Virus record (IMG/VR): IMGVR_UViG_2909298281_000001
Location: 1 to 15,778 of that record
Length of the DNA: 15,778 nucleotides
From: a virus
Lineage: Duplodnaviria > Heunggongvirae > Uroviricota > Caudoviricetes
Reading direction: 5' to 3' (one strand)
Of this stretch, positions 1,394-14,790 are shown in pieces (positions within the stretch are counted from its first letter, which is position 1; the number at the start of each line of letters is the position of its first letter). Below the pieces are notes generated by a model. The model was given only the letters and a program-made list of their open reading frames with translations, did not search any database and had not been told where the DNA came from. A program made the position numbers and the translations under genes.

Positions 1394-2296
1394 ATGGAAA
1401 TATCGAAAAATAAAATTTGGGAAGCCAAAGAATGGGAATCTCATGTAAATGATTTACTCCGACTAAAATTTGGTGAAGTAAATTATATATCTATACCTGA
1501 TTTTCATAATGGGGACGCTGGAATTGAGGGATATTGTGTACAGGGATATGCTTTTCAGTCTTATTGTCCTAATGAGGCATGTACAGTTGATAAGTTGTAT
1601 GAAAAACAAAGAGACAAGATGACCGCGGATGTTGCAAAATTCATTTCAGATAAAAAGGGGTATTTAAAAGAAATTCTACAAAACACCAGAATAAAAAGAT
1701 GGATTTTGGTAGTGCCATCTCACTTATCTAAAAAATTGAATGTTCATGCAACAAAAAAAGAAAGTGAAGTTCTAGCTGCTAAATTACCTTATGTTGATAA
1801 TGATGATTTCAAGGTGCTTATTTGGGATCGAGAAAATTTCAAAAAAGAGGAAGATGAATTAATTAGCAGCGGGCTTAGATTATTGAGGATAGAACTTCCT
1901 GAAGTCGATATTAACGATATTGATAATCTAAAAGATAACAATAGCGAGTTTGGCGATAATATTTCAAGGAAGCTTAGAAAGATAAAAAATGATGAGCGTC
2001 AAGTACAGACAGCTTCAACTGTATTATTAAAAAATATAGTTATGTATAAAAACATCATGAGTGGCCTCAAAGATAACTATCCTAGTTTATATGAAAATAT
2101 AACAAATGGTATACTGGATCGTGAGCAAGATTTGTCCTTGGCTTTTTTTGATTCTGAAAATTTGACTCTGACTCAGCAAATTCAACACCTTAATGATAAG
2201 CTAAAACAGTCTAGCCGTCTTCATCAAGATAATCTAAAATGTATTTCTACCGGAGTGGTTGGTGATTGGCTAATGCGCTGTAATTTGGACTTTTAA
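1394..2296 (+). CDS. Hypothetical protein, 300 aa; first gene of hotspot cargo operon (candidate effector)
   Basis: ATG-initiated 300-aa ORF in a markedly A+T-rich segment. Stop TAA at 2294-2296 lies 2 nt before the next ATG (2299), consistent with an operon. No catalytic motif I can assign with confidence; the stretch IPDFHNGDAGIEGYCVQ could be a degenerate nuclease-like acidic motif but this is speculative. Confidence 0.6.
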   Translation: MEISKNKIWEAKEWESHVNDLLRLKFGEVNYISIPDFHNGDAGIEGYCVQGYAFQSYCPNEACTVDKLYEKQRDKMTADVAKFISDKKGYLKEILQNTRIKRWILVVPSHLSKKLNVHATKKESEVLAAKLPYVDNDDFKVLIWDRENFKKEEDELISSGLRLLRIELPEVDINDIDNLKDNNSEFGDNISRKLRKIKNDERQVQTASTVLLKNIVMYKNIMSGLKDNYPSLYENITNGILDREQDLSLAFFDSENLTLTQQIQHLNDKLKQSSRLHQDNLKCISTGVVGDWLMRCNLDF

Positions 2297-2298
2297 TC

Positions 2299-2763
2299 AT
2301 GGATATTCTAAAAGAAACGCCTGAAAAGATGACTTTTAACTCGACTGGTTCGCCTGTTGAACCCGAATTAAGACCCATCTGGAGAATATCCTTGCTTGCT
2401 ATCATTCTTAAAAAACTATGCAGAGGCTCTTCTGCGAGTTTAAAAAAAATGCAAGTTTTATATTCTTTGATTTCCTCCGCCGATAAAAGAAGTCGGTATT
2501 TCACTGAAGGAGGTAATGCGGATATAAGCATTCGGTTTGATCCTCTCTTAGATAGAGCTATTTCGTTGGGAGTGGCAGAAGGTATATTTACTTTGGATGC
2601 TGCAAAAAGCGTTGTGTTAACCAATAAGGGCACGCTCTTATCTAATAAAATTTACAAAGATTCAACATTATTCGTTTTTGAAAAGGAATTTATCGAGAAC
2701 TATAGTAAATCTGAATTTTCCGATAAAAAGATAGATCAAATATTATACAGGGGAATTATATGA
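2299..2763 (+). CDS. Hypothetical protein, 154 aa; middle gene of hotspot cargo operon
   Basis: ORF tightly packed between flanking genes; its stop TGA (2761-2763) overlaps the ATG of the next gene (2760-2762) as ATGA. AGGGGA Shine-Dalgarno-like sequence at 2748-2753 serves the downstream gene. No recognizable motif. Confidence 0.55.
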   Translation: MDILKETPEKMTFNSTGSPVEPELRPIWRISLLAIILKKLCRGSSASLKKMQVLYSLISSADKRSRYFTEGGNADISIRFDPLLDRAISLGVAEGIFTLDAAKSVVLTNKGTLLSNKIYKDSTLFVFEKEFIENYSKSEFSDKKIDQILYRGII

Positions 2764-3987
2764 GCAAACTTAAGATTGAGAGATTAATTATACGAACAAA
2801 TACTAGTGATGGAATATATGGGACAGACCTTAAATTTGGCTATGGTCTAAATATTATAAGTGCTGAGAACTCTTCTGGTAAATCCACCTGTATACAATCA
2901 ATTATTTATGCACTAGGATTGGAGGGAATATTGGGACCATCCAGAAAAAATCCCTTAAAGTCTGCTCTAACTACTAAATTACGTGATAATAATGATACTG
3001 AAATACCGGTTAATGAATCAAAAATTTATCTCCAACTTTCTAACGAACATTCAAGAAAAATAACTATTTTAAGAAAAAGTGATAGTGATATTTCAAAAAT
3101 CGTTACCGTATATGACTGTGAGTTCGATAAAATCAATCCTCACAAATTTACGGACTATTTTTTGAAAGATCCCGGTTCTGCTCAGCGTGAGAAAGGATTT
3201 CATTATTTTCTTTCGAATTTCTTAGGGATAACACAGCCCGAAGTGATTAAATATGATGGAACCAAGTGTCCACTTTATCTTGAGTCAATATTCACAGTTA
3301 ATTATGTAGAGCAAACAAGAGGTTGGGGTGGGATTCTAAATGTTATTCCTACTTACTTGGGTATTAAGGATTTATCACAAAACGTTCTTGAATATACTCT
3401 TAATTTAGATGTTCGAGAAATAAGAAAGAAACGCGAGATATTTTTAGATGAAAAGAAAAATCTTGAAACTAAATGGGCAAATACAATCTCAGAGTTAGAG
3501 TCTAATGCAAAGGCTTATGGCTTCTTTGTATCAACAAGAATACCTGATAAAATCACTACAAAATCAGATACCTATCAAGATAGTGATTTATATACATTGG
3601 ATGAAAATAATCGTGAGATTTCTTTACCACTATACAAGGCTCATAAAGAGAACGAATTAGAATATATTAGAGCACAATTAAAAAATAACGACATCCCTAA
3701 TGATGGGGTGTTAGATTCTGTTCTTGATAGTCTTCGAGTGAATTTAGCTAATCAAGAATATGCTCTTTCATTATTAATCTCTGACATAGAGTCTAATAAA
3801 CTGTATATAAGTTCAATTAATAAGAGTCTGACTGATACAAAAGAAAGTCTTAGAAAATATAGAGATATTGAAAAGCTTAAGTTATTGGGCTCGCAGGAGG
3901 ATTTTTCTTTTGTCACTGGTAGTTGCCCAACTTGTGGACAAGCCGTTGAAGATACTCTCTTACCAGCGAGCTTTGATGGAAAGACAT

Positions 3988-3996
3988 TAACGGTTG
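3988..3996. repeat. IS1 target-site duplication, left copy (TAACGGTTG)
   Basis: 9-bp TAACGGTTG immediately abuts the IS1 end and is repeated exactly at 4765-4773. Confidence 0.88.
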
Positions 3997-4011
3997 GGTA
4001 ATGACTCCAAC

Positions 4012-4515
4012 TTATTGATAGTGTTTTATGTTCAGATAATGCCCGATGACTTTGTCATGCAGCTCCACCGATTTTGAGAACGACAGCGACTTCCGTCCCA
4101 GCCGTGCCAGGTGCTGCCTCAGATTCAGGTTATGCCGCTCAATTCGCTGCGTATATCGCTTGCTGATTACGTGCAGCTTTCCCTTCAGGCGGGATTCATA
4201 CAGCGGCCAGCCATCCGTCATCCATATCACCACGTCAAAGGGTGACAGCAGGCTCATAAGACGCACCAGCGTCGCCATAGTGCGTTCACCGAATACGTGC
4301 GCAACAACCGTCTTCCGGAGCCTGTCATACGCGTAAAACAGCCAGCGCTGGCGCGATTTAGCCCCGACGTATCCCCACTGTTCGTCCATTTCTGCGCAGA
4401 CGATGACGTCACTGCCCGGCTGTATGCGCGAGGTTACCGACTGCGGCCTGAGTTTTTTAAGTGACGTAAAATCGTGTTGAGGCCAACGCCCATAATGCGG
4501 GCAGTTGCCCGGCAT
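4012..4515 (-). CDS. insB: IS1 transposase InsB reading frame, 167 aa (expressed as InsAB' fusion by -1 frameshift)
   Basis: Translation [25 protein letters not shown]...NIKHYQ matches IS1 InsB as I recall it; position and length are canonical within IS1. Confidence 0.9.
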
Positions 4516-4709
4516 CCAACGCCATTCATGGCCATATCAATGATTTTCTGGTGCGTACCGGGTTGAGAAGCGGTGTAAGTGAACTGCAGTTGCCATGTTT
4601 TACGGCAGTGAGAGCAGAGATAGCGCTGATGTCCGGCGGTGCTTTTGCCGTTACGCACCACCCCGTCAGTAGCTGAACAGGAGGGACAGCTGATAGAAAC
4701 AGAAGCCAC
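4434..4709 (-). CDS. insA: IS1 InsA transposition repressor, 91 aa
   Basis: Translation [43 protein letters not shown]... with zinc-finger CxxC..CxxC and HTH region; canonical IS1 InsA length. Confidence 0.93.
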
Positions 4710-4764
4710 TGGAGCACCTCAAAAACACCATCATACACTAAATCAGTAAGTTGGCAGCATCACC

Positions 4765-4773
4765 TAACGGTTG
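4765..4773. repeat. IS1 target-site duplication, right copy (TAACGGTTG)
   Basis: Exact repeat of 3988-3996 immediately after the IS1 terminal repeat. Confidence 0.88.
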
Positions 4774-5582
4774 AAGATAATATAAAGTATCTAGAAAAAA
4801 CCTATGCAGTATTTGATAGCTTGGCAAAAAGTGAAAAAATAAAATTTGAAAGAAAAGAAGCTGCATTAAAAGTAGCTAATGCTAAAGTTCGAGACTTGCG
4901 TAATCAGATCAAAGAAGTTCAGCGTAGCATATCATCTCCTATAAACTCCGAGCTTAGAGAACTCATAAGAAAGGAAGTTAAACTGGAAAAGGATATCGAC
5001 ATTTTAAACTCACTGGAGGAATTCGAAATTAGTAAAAAAGATACACTTATGGCTGTTCTTTCTGATTGGTATGATTGTAATAATCAACTAACAGTACTTC
5101 CGTATGATGGTTTTAGCAAAGCAGATATATTAAAGTTGAGGTTATTACGTGATTCATTTAAATCAAACTTGGAGGATTTTGGTTATAAAAGTACACCAAT
5201 TGAAGAGTTTGATTTATCGAGAAATACATACAAACCAACTGTCGATGGTATAGATATCGGCTCTGAAGCATCCGCCAGTGATAACATTAGGGTGATTTGG
5301 TCATATTTGTATTCATTGTTGATGTTAGATTCCAGTGCAAGAGATATCTCAACTAATCATTTGGGACTGTTGATTATGGATGAACCAAGACAGCAAGAAA
5401 CTAAAGATGCTAGTTTTAGAACACTAATTAAGAAAGCATCTGAGTCGTATATTCAAGAAAAACAGATTATTATGGGTACTAGTGAAAAATTTACTGATTT
5501 AATTGCCATGCTGGATGGTTTGCATGTGAATCTTTTGCATTTCGATAGTAATATTATCCGTAAACAGTAAATCCCTCAATGT

Positions 5583-7962: not shown

Positions 7963-8041
7963 GGAGACTCATCCTCAGACCGGCAAGCCAGGAAAAGGTC
8001 GCAGGAAAAACCGGCTTACTGTTTGTTTTTTTATATTTTAC

Positions 8042-8145
8042 TGTTCACCTCTGTTCACCATAAGAAAAAAGATAAGTAATACAGTAAGTTAAAGGGTGAA
8101 CAATCGCAGTAATGACTGTTCACCGTCTGTTCACCACTGTTCACC
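8042..8145. repeat. Iteron cluster (TGTTCACC octamers), candidate P4-type ori
   Basis: Five direct copies of TGTTCACC (8042-8049, 8052-8059, 8118-8125, 8128-8135, 8138-8145) and one inverted copy GGTGAACA (8095-8102). The same octamer recurs in the crr repeats downstream of alpha, about 4.8 kb away, consistent with the P4 ori/crr arrangement as I recall it. Confidence 0.6.
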
Positions 8146-8302
8146 CGTTAATGGGCTTTTTGTGCTGTTCATTACTTTTTATTTTTATTAATTCACTGAA
8201 ATAAATAAGAAAAAACAATTTGTATTTCACTATAATTTTTTCCAGCTCCTTCCAGAGCGTTTTAAAGCTATCTGCGCTGATGTACAAAAAATACACAGCC
8301 AT

Positions 8303-8754: not shown

Positions 8755-8929
8755 TTTTCCGCTGTCGCAAAATCGGCAGCCGGGCGTAGGAACCCGTGTA
8801 ACTCGAAGGCGACATATGACGCGCCATGCGTCTTTTTTTGTGTCGCAATCAACGCCACAGAGCGCCAGATTATGGTGTGGCGTGTGGTTTGCCGTGCAGG
8901 TATGATCCTGTTCGCAATCGCATGTTATG

Positions 8930-9008
8930 CCACTGAGTCAATGGTAGCTCAGGCGGGGCAGCCTCCGGGCTGGCCGGTATTCTTCGAGGCCGGTATTCCT
9001 ACCCCCGT
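8930..9008 (+). ncRNA. Candidate CI immunity RNA (P4-type RNA repressor) containing a seqB-like element; boundaries approximate
   Basis: A segment TTCTTCGAGGCCGGTATTCCTACCC (about 8980-9004) is complementary to two flanking elements that share GCGTAGGAAC...CTCGAAGG (about 8784-8810 and 9028-9068), matching the seqA/seqB/seqC logic of P4 immunity as I recall it. Ends cannot be set from sequence alone. Confidence 0.35.
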
Positions 9009-9078
9009 CTGGGCTATCGCCATCGAGCGTAGGAACTCCGGCGATAGCAGTTATTTGCTACTCGAAGGAGACGGCCTT

Positions 9079-10139: not shown

Positions 10140-10460
10140 ATGAAAACACCCTTACCGCCCGTCTTACGCGCTGCCCTTTACCGTCGTGCTGTCGCCTGTG
10201 CCTGGCTGACCGTGTGCGAACGTCAGCACCGCTACCCGCATCTCACCCTTGAGTCACTGGAGGCGGCCATCGCCGCTGAGCTGGAAGGCTTTTATCTGCG
10301 CCAGCACGGTGAGGAAAAAGGGCGTCAGATAGCCTGTGCCCTGCTGGAAGATTTAATGGAATCCGGCCCCCTGAAGGCCGCGCCGTCGCTGTCCTTTCTC
10401 GGGCTGGTTGTGATGGATGAACTCTGTGCCCGTCACATAAAAGCGCCGGTACTGCACTGA
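10140..10460 (+). CDS. P4 orf106-like protein, 106 aa
   Basis: 106-aa ORF immediately upstream of alpha with matching codon usage. The name is from recollected P4 ORF nomenclature. Confidence 0.7.
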
Positions 10461-10474
10461 AGGAGAACTACACC

Positions 10475-12808
10475 ATGAAAATGAACGTAACCGCCACCGT
10501 CAGTCATGCGCTCGGCCACTGGCCGCGTATTCTCCCGGCGCTGGGGATTCAGGTGCTGAAAAACCGTCATCAGCCCTGTCCGGTCTGTGGCGGGAGTGAC
10601 CGCTTCCGTTTTGATGACAGGGAGGGGCGCGGCACCTGGTACTGCAATCAGTGTGGTGCCGGTGACGGCCTGAAACTGGTTGAAAAGGTGTTTGGTGTTT
10701 CCCCGTCCGACGCGGCCGCAAAGGTGGCTGCCGTGACCGGCAGCCTGCCCCCGGCTGACCCGGCAGTGACGGCCGCCGCCGTTGCTGAAACAGAAGCCGC
10801 CCGGAAGAACGCCGCCGCACTGGCACAAACCCTGATGGCGAAAACCCGTCCCGGAACCGGTAACGCCTACCTGACCCGCAAGGGCTTTCCCGGCCGGGAA
10901 TGCCGGATGCTGACCGGCACACACAGAGCCGGTGGCGTGAGCTGGCGCGCCGGTGACCTTGTGGTGCCACTGTATGACGACAGCGGCGAACTGGTTAACC
11001 TTCAGTTAATCAGTGCTGACGGCCGTAAGCGCACCCTGAAAGGCGGACAGGTCAGGGGCACCTGTCACATCCTTGAAGGACAGAATCAGGCCGGAAAACG
11101 TCTGTGGATAGCGGAGGGATACGCGACCGCACTTACCGTGCATCACCTGACCGGTGAAACGGTGATGGTGGCGCTTTCTTCCGTGAACCTCCTTTCTCTG
11201 GCCAGACTTGCCCGGCAGAAGCATCCGGCCTGTCAGATTGTCCTTGCCGCAGACCGTGACCTCAGCGGTGACGGCCAGAAAAAAGCCGCCGCAGCCGCAG
11301 ATGCGTGTGAAGGTGTTGTTGCCCTGCCGCCGGTCTTCGGTGACTGGAATGATGCCTTCACGCAGTACGGCGGGGAGGCCACCCGTAAGGCCATTTACGA
11401 TGCCATCCGGCCACCGGCTGAAAGCCCGTTCGACACCATGAGCGAAGCGGAGTTTTCCGCCATGAGTACCAGCGAAAAGGCCATGCGTATCTATGAGCAT
11501 TACGGCGAGGCGCTCGCGGTCGATGCCAACGGCCAGCTTCTGTCCCGTTATGAAAATGGTGTCTGGAAGGTGCTGCCGCCACAGGACTTTGCCCGGGATG
11601 TGGCCGGGCTGTTTCAGCGGCTGCGCGCGCCGTTCTCCTCCGGGAAGGTGGCCTCCGTGGTGGACACCCTGAAGCTGATTATTCCGCAGCAGGAAGCCCC
11701 CTCCCGCCGCCTGATTGGCTTTCGTAACGGTGTGCTCGACACACAGAACGGCACGTTCCACCCGCACAGTCCGTCACACTGGATGCGCACCCTGTGTGAT
11801 GTGGATTTCACCCCACCGGTGGAAGGGGAAACGCTGGAAACCCACGCCCCCGCGTTCTGGCGCTGGCTTGACCGTGCCGCCGGTGGCCGTGCGGAAAAAC
11901 GCGACGTGATTCTGGCCGCACTGTTTATGGTGCTGGCAAACCGCTACGACTGGCAGCTCTTTCTGGAGGTGACCGGTCCCGGCGGCAGCGGCAAAAGTAT
12001 CATGGCCGAAATAGCCACCCTGCTGGCCGGGGAGGATAACGCCACATCGGCCACCATTGAGACGCTGGAATCCCCGCGTGAACGTGCCGCGTTAACTGGC
12101 TTCTCACTGATACGCCTGCCTGACCAGGAAAAATGGAGCGGCGACGGTGCCGGACTCAAGGCCATCACCGGCGGCGATGCGGTGTCCGTTGACCCGAAAT
12201 ACCGGGATGCGTACTCCACGCACATCCCGGCGGTGATTCTGGCCGTGAACAATAACCCGATGCGCTTCACCGACCGCAGCGGCGGCGTGTCACGCCGGCG
12301 GGTGATTATTCACTTCCCTGAACAGATAGCCCCGCAGGAGCGCGACCCGCAGCTTAAGGACAAAATCACCCGCGAGCTGGCGGTCATCGTGCGTCACCTG
12401 ATGCAGAAATTCAGCGACCCGATGCTCGCCCGGTCACTGCTTCAGTCCCAGCAGAACTCAGACGAGGCGCTGAACATCAAACGGGATGCCGACCCGACGT
12501 TTGATTTTATCGGCTATCTGGAAACCCTGCCGCAGACCAGCGGCATGTATATGGGGAACGCCAGTATCATCCCGCGCAATTACCGTAAATACCTCTATCA
12601 CGCCTATCTGGCCTACATGGAGGCAAACGGCTACCGGAACGTACTCAGTCTGAAAATGTTCGGGCTGGGGCTGCCGGTGATGCTGAAGGAATACGGACTG
12701 AATTACGAGAAGCGCCATACCAAACAGGGGATACAGACCAACCTGACACTGAAAGAGGAAAGCTACGGCGACTGGCTGCCAAAATGTGACGACCCTGCAA
12801 CAGCCTGA
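10475..12808 (+). CDS. alpha: Alpha primase-helicase replication protein, 777 aa
   Basis: AAGGAGA ribosome-binding site (10460-10466). N-terminal zinc-binding CPVCGGSDRF...YCNQCGAGDG followed by a primase-type acidic region (..LAADRDLSGDGQ..). Central Walker A GPGGSGKS and D5-type SF3 helicase region. 777 aa is the P4 alpha length as I recall. Confidence 0.95.
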   Translation: MKMNVTATVSHALGHWPRILPALGIQVLKNRHQPCPVCGGSDRFRFDDREGRGTWYCNQCGAGDGLKLVEKVFGVSPSDAAAKVAAVTGSLPPADPAVTAAAVAETEAARKNAAALAQTLMAKTRPGTGNAYLTRKGFPGRECRMLTGTHRAGGVSWRAGDLVVPLYDDSGELVNLQLISADGRKRTLKGGQVRGTCHILEGQNQAGKRLWIAEGYATALTVHHLTGETVMVALSSVNLLSLARLARQKHPACQIVLAADRDLSGDGQKKAAAAADACEGVVALPPVFGDWNDAFTQYGGEATRKAIYDAIRPPAESPFDTMSEAEFSAMSTSEKAMRIYEHYGEALAVDANGQLLSRYENGVWKVLPPQDFARDVAGLFQRLRAPFSSGKVASVVDTLKLIIPQQEAPSRRLIGFRNGVLDTQNGTFHPHSPSHWMRTLCDVDFTPPVEGETLETHAPAFWRWLDRAAGGRAEKRDVILAALFMVLANRYDWQLFLEVTGPGGSGKSIMAEIATLLAGEDNATSATIETLESPRERAALTGFSLIRLPDQEKWSGDGAGLKAITGGDAVSVDPKYRDAYSTHIPAVILAVNNNPMRFTDRSGGVSRRRVIIHFPEQIAPQERDPQLKDKITRELAVIVRHLMQKFSDPMLARSLLQSQQNSDEALNIKRDADPTFDFIGYLETLPQTSGMYMGNASIIPRNYRKYLYHAYLAYMEANGYRNVLSLKMFGLGLPVMLKEYGLNYEKRHTKQGIQTNLTLKEESYGDWLPKCDDPATA

Positions 12809-12815
12809 CCCACCT

Positions 12816-12841
12816 GACCGGCATCTGCCGGTCTTTTTTTT
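12816..12841 (+). terminator. Rho-independent terminator after alpha
   Basis: GACCGGCA-TC-TGCCGGTC perfect 8-bp stem (12816-12833) followed directly by a run of eight T (12834-12841), 8 nt after the alpha stop. Confidence 0.75.
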
Positions 12842-12856
12842 ATCCCGATATCCCCC

Positions 12857-13160
12857 GAAGGTGAACAATCCACTGTTCACCCTTCACCGTATGTTCACCC
12901 GTTATCACACTGAAATTAAAAGAGAAAAACGAAAGGTGAACAGTGTGAACAATCAAATCAAAAAAAACTTTTTTCTTCCTGAGTGATTTCAGTACGGGGG
13001 ATTAATCACCGGTATGAGTCACACCGGCAGAATGCCGGAGGTGAAGAATCGAATGTTCACCCTTCACCCATTATTCACCATCTATTACTCTGAAATAAAA
13101 GGAGAAAATCAAAGGGTGAACAGTGTGAACAGTTCTTCCGAAAAAAAATTTTTTATGTGG
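12857..13160. repeat. crr (cis replication region): two direct repeats of about 120 bp, each with several TGTTCACC/GGTGAACA iterons
   Basis: Unit 1 about 12857-12980 and unit 2 about 13037-13160 align closely (e.g. ..GTTCACCCTTCACC..CTGAAAT.AAAAG.AGAAAA.C.AAAGGTGAACAGTGTGAACA..AAAAAAA.TTTTTT). The about 60-bp spacing matches my recollection of P4 crr. Confidence 0.7.
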
Positions 13161-13344
13161 GTAAAAGATGCACTGGTTTGGATCCGAGCTACGGATCCAA
13201 ACTCACTGATTAAAAATTAGTTAACTTTCCGATTTGTTGATGGGTTGAAAATAGATTGGTCAGAAAAACAGTGGGGGCACAAAAGGGGGCATATTTCATT
13301 TTTGTTTTTTATTATTTGTTTTTTATCATTGACTTATTTTGATA

Positions 13345-13366
13345 TTTGAGTCCGGCCTTCGCACCT
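13345..13366 (+). other. Candidate attR core: degenerate copy of a tRNA 3' end (right boundary of the element)
   Basis: TTTGAGTCCGGCCTTCGCACC resembles a tRNA T-arm/acceptor 3' end (TTCGAGTCCGGCCTTCGGCACCA type), with one substitution and one deletion relative to my recollection of a leucine tRNA end. Located after crr where attR is expected. Confidence 0.45.
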
Positions 13367-13575
13367 TCGCACCATCGGAACATCAATAGACATCAACGGA
13401 CGTTTTTTTATGACTGAAATCCGCGCCACACAAGGCTTTTCGCTATTTTTCGCTCAACCTAAGTCAACCTACATCAACTTACTGATGTGGATACAGCTAC
13501 AGCTGCGGCTATACCCCGATTCGATAATGTTTGTACCCACACAAAACCCTTGAAAGGCTACAAGGCTGAAATTGT

Positions 13576-13817: not shown

Positions 13818-14060
13818 TTACTCACTTCGAACTGCATCCTCGTAGACTGTTCCACTACAATAATCGAAAAGGCGCGGATGTCCATTCAGGTATCCCGCTA
13901 ATACGTATAGCAATAACAATGGCTTATGCGGCGCGCGCTGTTCACCCTTGTGCCAGATTTTTATATTGGCAATTGCCTGCTGTAGCGATTTACTGGAAGC
14001 TATTGATATCCCTGGCAGTGAAATAATTGCGATCATGCTCGCAAATTTTCTGCTGTTCAA
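13818..14060 (-). CDS. Hypothetical small ORF, 80 aa
   Basis: ORF from track. Weak local resemblance (I-x-I-W-x-x-G-E ... P) to the N-terminal region of the divergent HNH-domain protein at 14140..14790. Confidence 0.3.
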   Translation of the reverse strand: MNSRKFASMIAIISLPGISIASSKSLQQAIANIKIWHKGEQRAPHKPLLLLYVLAGYLNGHPRLFDYCSGTVYEDAVRSE

Positions 14061-14139: not shown

Positions 14140-14790
14140 ATGAATAAACTCCCTGATCATCTTCCGCGGCGGTATATCATCGAAGCTATCCATTTATGGG
14201 ATGCGGGAGAAACTCATCAGTTCCAGCCTGCGCGGTTGTATGAGATTGAATATCATGGCCGACGTTACCCCTCGAAGGCGATTGCTGGCATCGCAGCGAC
14301 ATTGATGACGGGGACGCAATTTACCCCTGCGGATTTCACCGGCGGAATAAAATCTAAATGTGTCAAGCTACTCATAGAGCAGGGATTTCATATTCATCTG
14401 GATAAAGCCGCTGCGGCTCCCATAGCCGACGTTCTGTTCCCGGATGAGTTGCCGTCGCAGGAGACATACCTTGAAGGTGCGGCGATAAAGGTGACAGTAA
14501 ACCGCTATGAACGCGATAAAAAGGCCCGAGATAAAGCGGTCGAACATCATGGATGCCAGTGCAACGTATGCGGTGTTGATCTGGTGAAGATCTATGGTGA
14601 TATCGCTGAAGGCTTTATCCATGTGCATCACCTGGTGCCGCTGTCAGCCATTAAAGAGGATTACCAGCTGGATCCAGTTAATGATTTGCTGCCTGTGTAC
14701 CCTAATTGCCATGCGATGTTGCACCGACGCAAACCACCGTTTACGCCGGAGCAGTTAAAAGCGCTGATGGATGCGAATAAATCAAATTAA
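14140..14790 (+). CDS. HNH endonuclease-domain protein, 216 aa, with an uncharacterized N-terminal domain
   Basis: C-terminal HNH-type motif CQCNVCGV...HVHHLVPLS...N...YPNCHAMLH (two Cys pairs plus His-His and Asn). The N-terminal 130 aa has no motif I can assign. Confidence 0.75.
   Translation: MNKLPDHLPRRYIIEAIHLWDAGETHQFQPARLYEIEYHGRRYPSKAIAGIAATLMTGTQFTPADFTGGIKSKCVKLLIEQGFHIHLDKAAAAPIADVLFPDELPSQETYLEGAAIKVTVNRYERDKKARDKAVEHHGCQCNVCGVDLVKIYGDIAEGFIHVHHLVPLSAIKEDYQLDPVNDLLPVYPNCHAMLHRRKPPFTPEQLKALMDANKSN

Follow-up and report, generated by a model that had tools for sequence, protein, structure and literature searches.

Between the alpha gene and the right attachment site of a P4-type prophage lie two similar repeats, each overlapped by a small open reading frame (ORF), raising the question of whether this stretch encodes proteins, represents a CRISPR-like array or serves as a replication element, and whether its two repeats are conserved as a pair in related satellites. 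We approached this question through repeat searches, alignment with the reference records of P4, profile searches, and a comparison of homologous loci from other genomes.

A repeat pair downstream of alpha in a P4-type prophage

The stretch of DNA that we analyzed, hereinafter the window (15,778 nt; IMG/VR record IMGVR_UViG_2909298281_000001), contains a P4-type prophage that extends from int (1–1260) to the attR copy of the leuX 3′ end (13348). Toward its right end, the alpha gene (plus strand, 10475–12808), which codes for a 777-aa primase/helicase/origin-binding protein, is followed by t-alpha, the rho-independent terminator of the alpha transcript, which we recovered in a terminator scan (plus strand, 12816–12843; a 7-bp stem, GACCGGCATCTGCCGGTC, followed by T8) and which has its counterpart in the 'talpha' annotated at the homologous place in P4. 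Beyond the terminator, a repeat search recovered two 120-nt direct repeats, namely, the alpha-proximal unit 1 (12855–12974) and the alpha-distal unit 2 (13035–13154), which align without gaps at 94 of 120 positions (78% identity). They are separated by a 60-nt spacer (12975–13034), giving a start-to-start distance of 180 nt, and the whole (12855–13154) is positioned just 3′ of alpha and its terminator and ahead of the attR core. The initial annotation had described a pair of units of about 120 bp at 12857–13160 with a gap of about 60 bp; the pair is real, its boundaries move by a few bases, and the gap is exactly 60 nt. As a null model, we took the best 120-nt self-match from each of 200 dinucleotide-preserving shuffles of the segment 12500–13500; these matches had a mean of 51.5 and a maximum of 58 identical positions, and the 94 observed thus place the repeat far beyond chance.

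The remainder of the window yielded several further observations on the prophage. Its cargo region (1394–5570) encodes a Lamassu system with LmuA (1394–2296), LmuC (2299–2763), and a split LmuB, the two halves of which (2760–4001 and 4821–5570) match positions 2–334 and 361–597, respectively, of a 610-position profile. An IS1 element (transposase on the minus strand, 4012–4515; terminal repeat, 4742–4764) lies between the LmuB halves. The Lamassu defence system of the window is probably inactivated. An Rfam scan of the whole window found no RNA family in the repeat region and only two matches elsewhere, to isrK (8761–8838, 69 bits) and to the C4 antisense RNA (8937–9024, 74 bits), the latter of which we take to be the P4 CI immunity RNA region; both RNAs are to be expected in a P4-type element. 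Between the repeats and the attP arm repeats, there is a perfect hairpin (13176–13202; 11-bp stem and 5-nt loop, GTTTGGATCCG...CGGATCCAAAC) that is the same in P4, where it is unannotated; it folds as DNA with a z-score of −5.4 and lacks a T-run on its far side. At attR (13348–13382), the copy of the leuX/attP core is short of one G of its 20 bp, a feature recorded for the related locus L004 (13725) as well. The attR further displays a variable 8-nt tandem repeat of the form GAGTCCGGCCTTCG(CACCTTCG)nCACCATCGG, with one copy (n=1) in the window, three (n=3) in Escherichia coli VE-F10, and none (n=0) in three further loci. Past attR, the segment 13400–15778 contains an HNH-endonuclease-like ORF (14140–14790), and in a related strain the annotation of the matching stretch lists fragments of both a restriction endonuclease and a sialate O-acetylesterase; this segment has the appearance of a remnant left by another island beside leuX.

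Near-identity of the repeat pair to the P4 crr

Window positions 12780–13240 align end to end with positions 4205–4664 of the P4 record X51522, with 96.1% identity over 461 nt. The annotation of that stretch of P4 comprises crr, two copies of a 'crr 120bp direct repeat', ten features labeled 'ori type 1 repeat' and, upstream of these, 'talpha'; the window also matches a second record, X05623, described as 'alpha gene and cis replication region crr'. The P4 crr (X51522 4291–4590; X05623 2733–3032) likewise follows alpha and its terminator, and consists of two 120-bp repeats with a 60-bp spacer, each repeat having five annotated type 1 iterons and ending in an A/T tract; P4 also has an ori1 with six identical iterons at a distance of 4.7 kb from crr. 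The same ten type 1 iterons are present in the window in identical order and orientation. The units of the window differ from those of P4 by 8 substitutions in 240 nt, of which one is in unit 1 (1/120 positions relative to the proximal unit of P4) and seven are in unit 2 (7/120 relative to the distal unit), with three more in the spacer. The sole substitution in unit 1 makes its third iteron (c) a perfect TGTTCACC, whereas P4 has TATTCACC at this site. At the level of the whole element, the window version differs from P4 in being an integrated prophage and in having Lamassu as its cargo, in place of the gop/beta/cII of P4; moreover, the three 10-bp 'ori type 2 repeats' of P4 (X51522 9176–9205) are not conserved in the window (~8256–8300).

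The cognate initiator is encoded alongside these repeats. The alpha protein of the window is identical to P4 alpha at 769 of 777 positions (99%), and Pfam searches with it recovered the Zn_Ribbon_Prim, Toprim_3, D5_N, DUF5906, and Pox_D5 families. Its residues 671–770 match the origin-binding winged-helix domain of P4 (PDB 1ka8, E=1e-63), and none of the eight substitutions that separate it from P4 alpha falls within this domain. Just before alpha, and in the same position as ORF106 of P4, is a homologue of the latter (plus strand, 10140–10460; 106 aa; DUF5375, E=3e-63), which we take to be cnr, the negative regulator of alpha. The same replicon further contains an ori1 iteron cluster (8042–8145), 4.7 kb upstream of the repeats, with six exact copies of TGTTCACC (8042+, 8052+, 8095−, 8117+, 8128+, and 8138+), all of which are the same as in the P4 ori ('origin of DNA replication / ori type 1 repeat'), with (nearly) identical flanks.

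Given this direct homology to an experimentally defined element, the feature is very probably (with a probability of about 0.96) the cis-required replication region, or crr, of a leuX-integrated satellite prophage of the P4 type, and thus non-coding DNA; we found no evidence that contradicts this identification. The name crr had already been proposed for it in the initial annotation, with alignment to the P4 crr as the suggested check, and that alignment bears the proposal out. The crr itself is already known, having been defined in the 1980s and annotated in public records of P4.

Iterons and symmetry of the crr units

Counting both strands, we found 13 exact copies of TGTTCACC in the 15.8-kb window against an expectation of 0.56, a number reached in none of 200 shuffles. 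Six of these constitute the ori1 cluster, six lie in the crr units, and a single stray copy is found in the host flank past attR (13939–13946), where it is compatible with chance at 0.56 expected copies per window. Four of the crr copies are in unit 1, which has one further site with a single mismatch, and only two are in unit 2, which has three such one-mismatch sites. In both units the resulting five type 1 sites, here a to e, follow the order − + + − −, as in the P4 crr. In unit 1, the exact sites are a (12860–12867, minus strand, reading GGTGAACA on the plus strand; an 'ori type 1 repeat' in P4), b (12874–12881, plus strand; likewise annotated in P4), c (12892–12899, plus strand), and d (12935–12942, minus strand), and the one-mismatch site is e (12944–12951, minus strand; TGTTCACA), which is also a type 1 repeat in the P4 annotation. 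In unit 2, b (13054–13061, plus strand) and d (13115–13122, minus strand) are exact, and a (13040–13047, minus strand; TCTTCACC), c (13072–13079, plus strand; TATTCACC), and e (13124–13131, minus strand; TGTTCACA) have one mismatch each. Each unit ends in an A/T tract, which takes the form A8-C-T6 in unit 1 (12960–12974) and, as read from the sequence, A8-T6 in unit 2 (13141–13154); hence, the several iterons and the A-run/T-run initially noticed in each unit resolve into five sites and one A8-(C)-T6 tract.

Both units also possess a sixth, iteron-like site, b′ (CCTTCACC, plus strand, two mismatches; 12881–12888 in unit 1 and 13061–13068 in unit 2), which overlaps b by one base and is unannotated in P4. 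With this site included, the 120-bp unit is a quasi-dyad, in which one reverse and three forward type 1 sites are followed by an A+T-rich stretch, two reverse sites and the A/T tract, with c and d placed 43 nt apart, start to start, on either side of the A+T-rich stretch. When 58 homologous units (38 loci) were aligned, columns within the six sites and the A/T tract averaged 1.66 bits, as against 0.95 for those outside (Mann–Whitney p=4e-9), and of the 50 columns with at least 95% conservation, 40 belonged to these blocks. Taken separately, b′ shows 1.61 bits per column across the 58 units and, in several of the relatives that have only one unit, reads as a perfect TGTTCACC, and the conserved block corresponding to the tract at the end of unit 1 shows 1.55 bits per column. 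The single-strand DNA folding z-scores of the two units (−3.3 and −2.2) are modest and are accounted for by the inverted iterons; we did not take them as a sign of structured RNA or DNA.

Conservation of the pair and variation in unit number

A match to crr is present in 1101 of 5426 complete E. coli genomes. When 40 of these hits were taken evenly down the ranking, 35 spanned 299–309 nt, corresponding to two units, and five hits from the tail were shorter. Two of the tail hits with a single unit (H48 and H51) are decayed remnants in which alpha is truncated, H48 being additionally cut by an IS3, and on account of this decay we set them aside as functional evidence.

To look beyond E. coli, we used 80 loci that encode relatives of alpha (57–99% identity) in a collection with one genome per species. 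Two orthologous units follow alpha in 18 of these loci, in the same position as in P4 except in L013, where they lie 730 nt further on. Their hosts include Enterobacter, Atlantibacter, Pseudescherichia, Edwardsiella, Tenebrionibacter, Citrobacter, Superficieibacter, Klebsiella, and Raoultella, and the two-unit loci also include some mis-binned E. coli-like contigs. As to such contigs, four of the 80 loci whose P4-like alpha is near-identical (98–99%; L005, L006, L007, and L041) are filed under metagenome-assembled genomes labeled Ferruginibacter, Clostridiales, Ruminococcus, and 'bacterium', and are almost certainly mis-binned Escherichia contigs. Across loci, copies of the unit-1 type have a mean identity of 85.6% and copies of the unit-2 type one of 81%, whereas units 1 and 2 of one and the same locus are 70% identical in the two-unit loci. 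Since the units are thus closer to their counterparts in other loci than to their neighbors, the duplication must be old, with both copies having been kept. The unit-to-unit period ranges from 166 to 181 nt among the two-unit loci; the spacer thus has no fixed length and the two units no constant rotational phase, a sign that each may act as a module of its own. We also considered an original duplication of 180 bp that took in the terminator hairpin, and rejected it, the spacer not being convincingly similar to the 60 nt preceding unit 1.

A single unit follows a full-length, stop-free alpha in about 20 of the 80 loci. In two of them (L008 and L015) this unit is of the unit-1 type and looks like the outcome of a loss of unit 2. 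Apart from the chimeric unit described below, the remaining single units constitute a third type, which shares about 65% identity with either of the other two and often has TGTTCACT as the iteron. The single-unit variants (e.g., those of Enterobacter, L008; Intestinirhabdus, L014; Enterobacter chuandaensis, L020; and Mangrovibacter, L036) share the 120-nt architecture of the window units, start about 50–65 nt after a full-length alpha and have their iteron core also in their own ori; they differ from the window in having one unit, in an iteron consensus that is often TGTTCACT and in a b′ that is a full iteron. In Edwardsiella hoshinae (L054), a unit of this single type has been independently re-duplicated, giving two units that are 95% identical with a 330-nt period. 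This duplication, located 17–506 nt after alpha, is recent and takes the form of a 160-nt repeat with 93% identity that includes the preceding terminator region. A different kind of single unit was seen in L007 (SFGJ01000059.1), where it is chimeric, corresponding to unit 1 up to site b′ and to unit 2 from there on, as expected when the two repeats recombine with each other. The stop codon of alpha has been lost in this locus, and the frame reads 53 codons into the crr.

More generally, the iteron core is clustered both downstream of alpha and about 1.7–2.6 kb upstream in about 30 related loci. The ~40 more distant loci of the 80, which belong to neither the two-unit nor the single-unit group, have no cluster of TGTTCACC. 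A de novo iteron search at loci whose alpha is 57–70% identical returned the candidates TGTACACC in L046 (Erwinia) and ACTCATCA in L066 (Pectobacterium), along with a candidate TTCACC-type core in Pantoea; for the most part, however, what it retrieved in these distant satellites was A/T-rich noise.

The initial annotation had made conservation of the two units as a pair in related satellites the test of its proposal. This expectation holds in part: an orthologous pair is present in 18 of the 80 loci, but about 20 loci with an intact alpha have a single unit. Hence, the paired arrangement is clade-specific and not universal among related satellites, and the duplication itself is not essential. 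The identification as crr is unaffected by the single-unit relatives because it rests on the near-identity to P4. A single 120-bp repeat is reportedly sufficient for crr function in P4, which fits the existence of these relatives.

Predicted role of crr in replication

In the classic experimental papers on crr and alpha of P4, the winged helix of alpha is said to bind the iterons of both ori and crr, crr is reportedly needed in cis for replication from ori1, and alpha bound at both sites can reportedly loop the DNA. As the alpha domain and its sites are the same or nearly the same as in P4, we predict with high confidence that alpha binding, the cis requirement and looping would carry over to the element in the window. 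Thus, the C-terminal winged helix of its alpha would bind the type 1 octamers at crr and ori1, and may bridge these sites by looping out the intervening DNA. Such bridging would help alpha, which combines origin binding, helicase, and primase activities in one protein, to open and prime the DNA at ori1, making crr a cis-acting enhancer of ori1. A complex of alpha with Cnr on the same sites would, in turn, bring about negative control of copy number. Indirect support for the steps involving alpha and crr of P4 comes from PMC4234260 and a bioRxiv preprint.

The iterons of the gamma origin of R6K, on which the distant alpha and beta origins depend in cis by way of pi-mediated looping, and the control arrays incA of P1 and incC of F offer parallels that are purely functional analogies and do not imply membership in one family. 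Common to these plasmid arrays and crr are a cluster of initiator-binding sites away from the point of initiation, cis action by looping, and a handle for negative control. However, the initiator of the P4-type system, alpha, is not of the Rep/pi type and unites a primase, an SF3 helicase, and a winged helix in one chain; likewise, the crr iterons are 8-bp sites in mixed orientation within a 120-bp unit, whereas plasmid iterons are typically 19–22-bp direct repeats.

These parallels bring up the alternative that the units are chiefly a negative locus for copy-number control and incompatibility, acting by titration of alpha or by 'handcuffing' with ori1 in the manner of the P1 incA, F, and RK2 arrays. 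Iteron clusters outside origins indeed act in this way in many plasmids, and Cnr reportedly strengthens the binding of alpha at ori and crr, with the tighter complex blocking and shutting down replication; the window has a cnr homologue, and the natural number of units varies (one, two, or re-duplicated), as might be seen in a dosage-tuning element. Nevertheless, the crr of P4 is defined as a positively required cis element in its GenBank annotation, and a purely negative element would not be required; we accordingly regard a chiefly negative locus as very improbable. Since the two roles are not exclusive, negative control is best seen as a second function compatible with the identification as crr and not as an alternative to it.

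A comparison with ori1 bears on another alternative, namely, that each crr unit is a second origin, i.e., a paralogue of the ori1 core that alpha would be able to open. One module is found both in the left half of ori1 (8025–8105) and in each crr unit: a T-run is followed by a pair of direct iterons, an A+T-rich gap, and an inverted iteron. The 43-nt start-to-start spacing of the units also recurs in the left half of ori1 (8052 to 8095), and the shared module suggests either common ancestry or a common binding geometry. However, a direct comparison revealed no sequence similarity between the A+T-rich gap of ori1 and those within the crr units, crr is devoid of the three-iteron right arm of ori1, and replication of P4 is said to start at ori1 only. 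Origin activity of the units is therefore very improbable.

The overlapping ORFs

The crr is overlapped by two ORFs on the plus strand, one of 66 aa with a GTG start (12786–12986), which begins inside alpha and spans the terminator and unit 1, and another of 68 aa with an ATG start (13014–13220), which spans unit 2. The initial annotation had called both of them spurious and had warned that the region could be mistaken for protein-coding sequence. Such mistakes have in fact been made: the RefSeq version of P4 has a GeneMark-predicted 'hypothetical protein', P4p05, over the distal crr unit and attP; in E. coli VE-F10, PGAP places a 'hypothetical protein' directly after alpha; and of the 40 E. 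coli hits that were sampled, 7 have such a 'hypothetical protein' where they match crr. Apart from these predictions, the reading of the two ORFs as real genes for small proteins that arose by gene duplication could draw on the fact that, in the window, both are open and read the units in a common frame. Yet this shared frame is interrupted by one to five stop codons in 51 of the 58 homologous units (38 loci), including unit 1 of L005, a locus with a 99% identical alpha. Furthermore, neither ORF has a Pfam match, the first would have to start within alpha and run through the alpha terminator, a promoter scan of 12700–13500 found no promoter-like site, and conservation tracks the octamer sites on both strands and not the codon positions. 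The reading as genuine small genes is thus in effect refuted, and the spurious status first given to the ORFs stands.

A CRISPR array, i.e., many near-identical repeats of 24–48 nt with unique spacers of similar length and usually near cas genes, is rejected, the crr having only two copies of 120 nt that are 78% identical and the ORFs examined including no cas genes.

Implications for P4-type satellites

With crr already defined in the 1980s, its recognition in a further prophage brings little biological gain. The practical consequence is for annotation: this 300-bp stretch should be annotated as a replication element and not as genes for 'hypothetical proteins', a correction that applies to the RefSeq record of P4 itself. 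A large survey of P4-like satellites (PMC8628076) contains no mention of crr or of iterons, and the comparative layer presented here, comprising the variation in unit number, the orthology of the units, the sixth site and the module in common with ori1, is a modest addition that may be previously undescribed.

The loci surveyed present unit number as a variable trait, with single units, an old pair, apparent losses (one of them chimeric), and a recent re-duplication, and with each unit possibly being a dyad-symmetric relative of the ori1 core. It is conceivable, though doubtful, that this number tunes the capture of alpha near the origin and, through it, burst size or plasmid copy number in conjunction with the variant of alpha and Cnr. 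As the comparison shows, many natural satellites whose alpha is intact get by with one unit, and the paired form goes back to an old duplication that one clade has retained; this result may be of use for P4-based delivery vectors and for studies of satellite replication.
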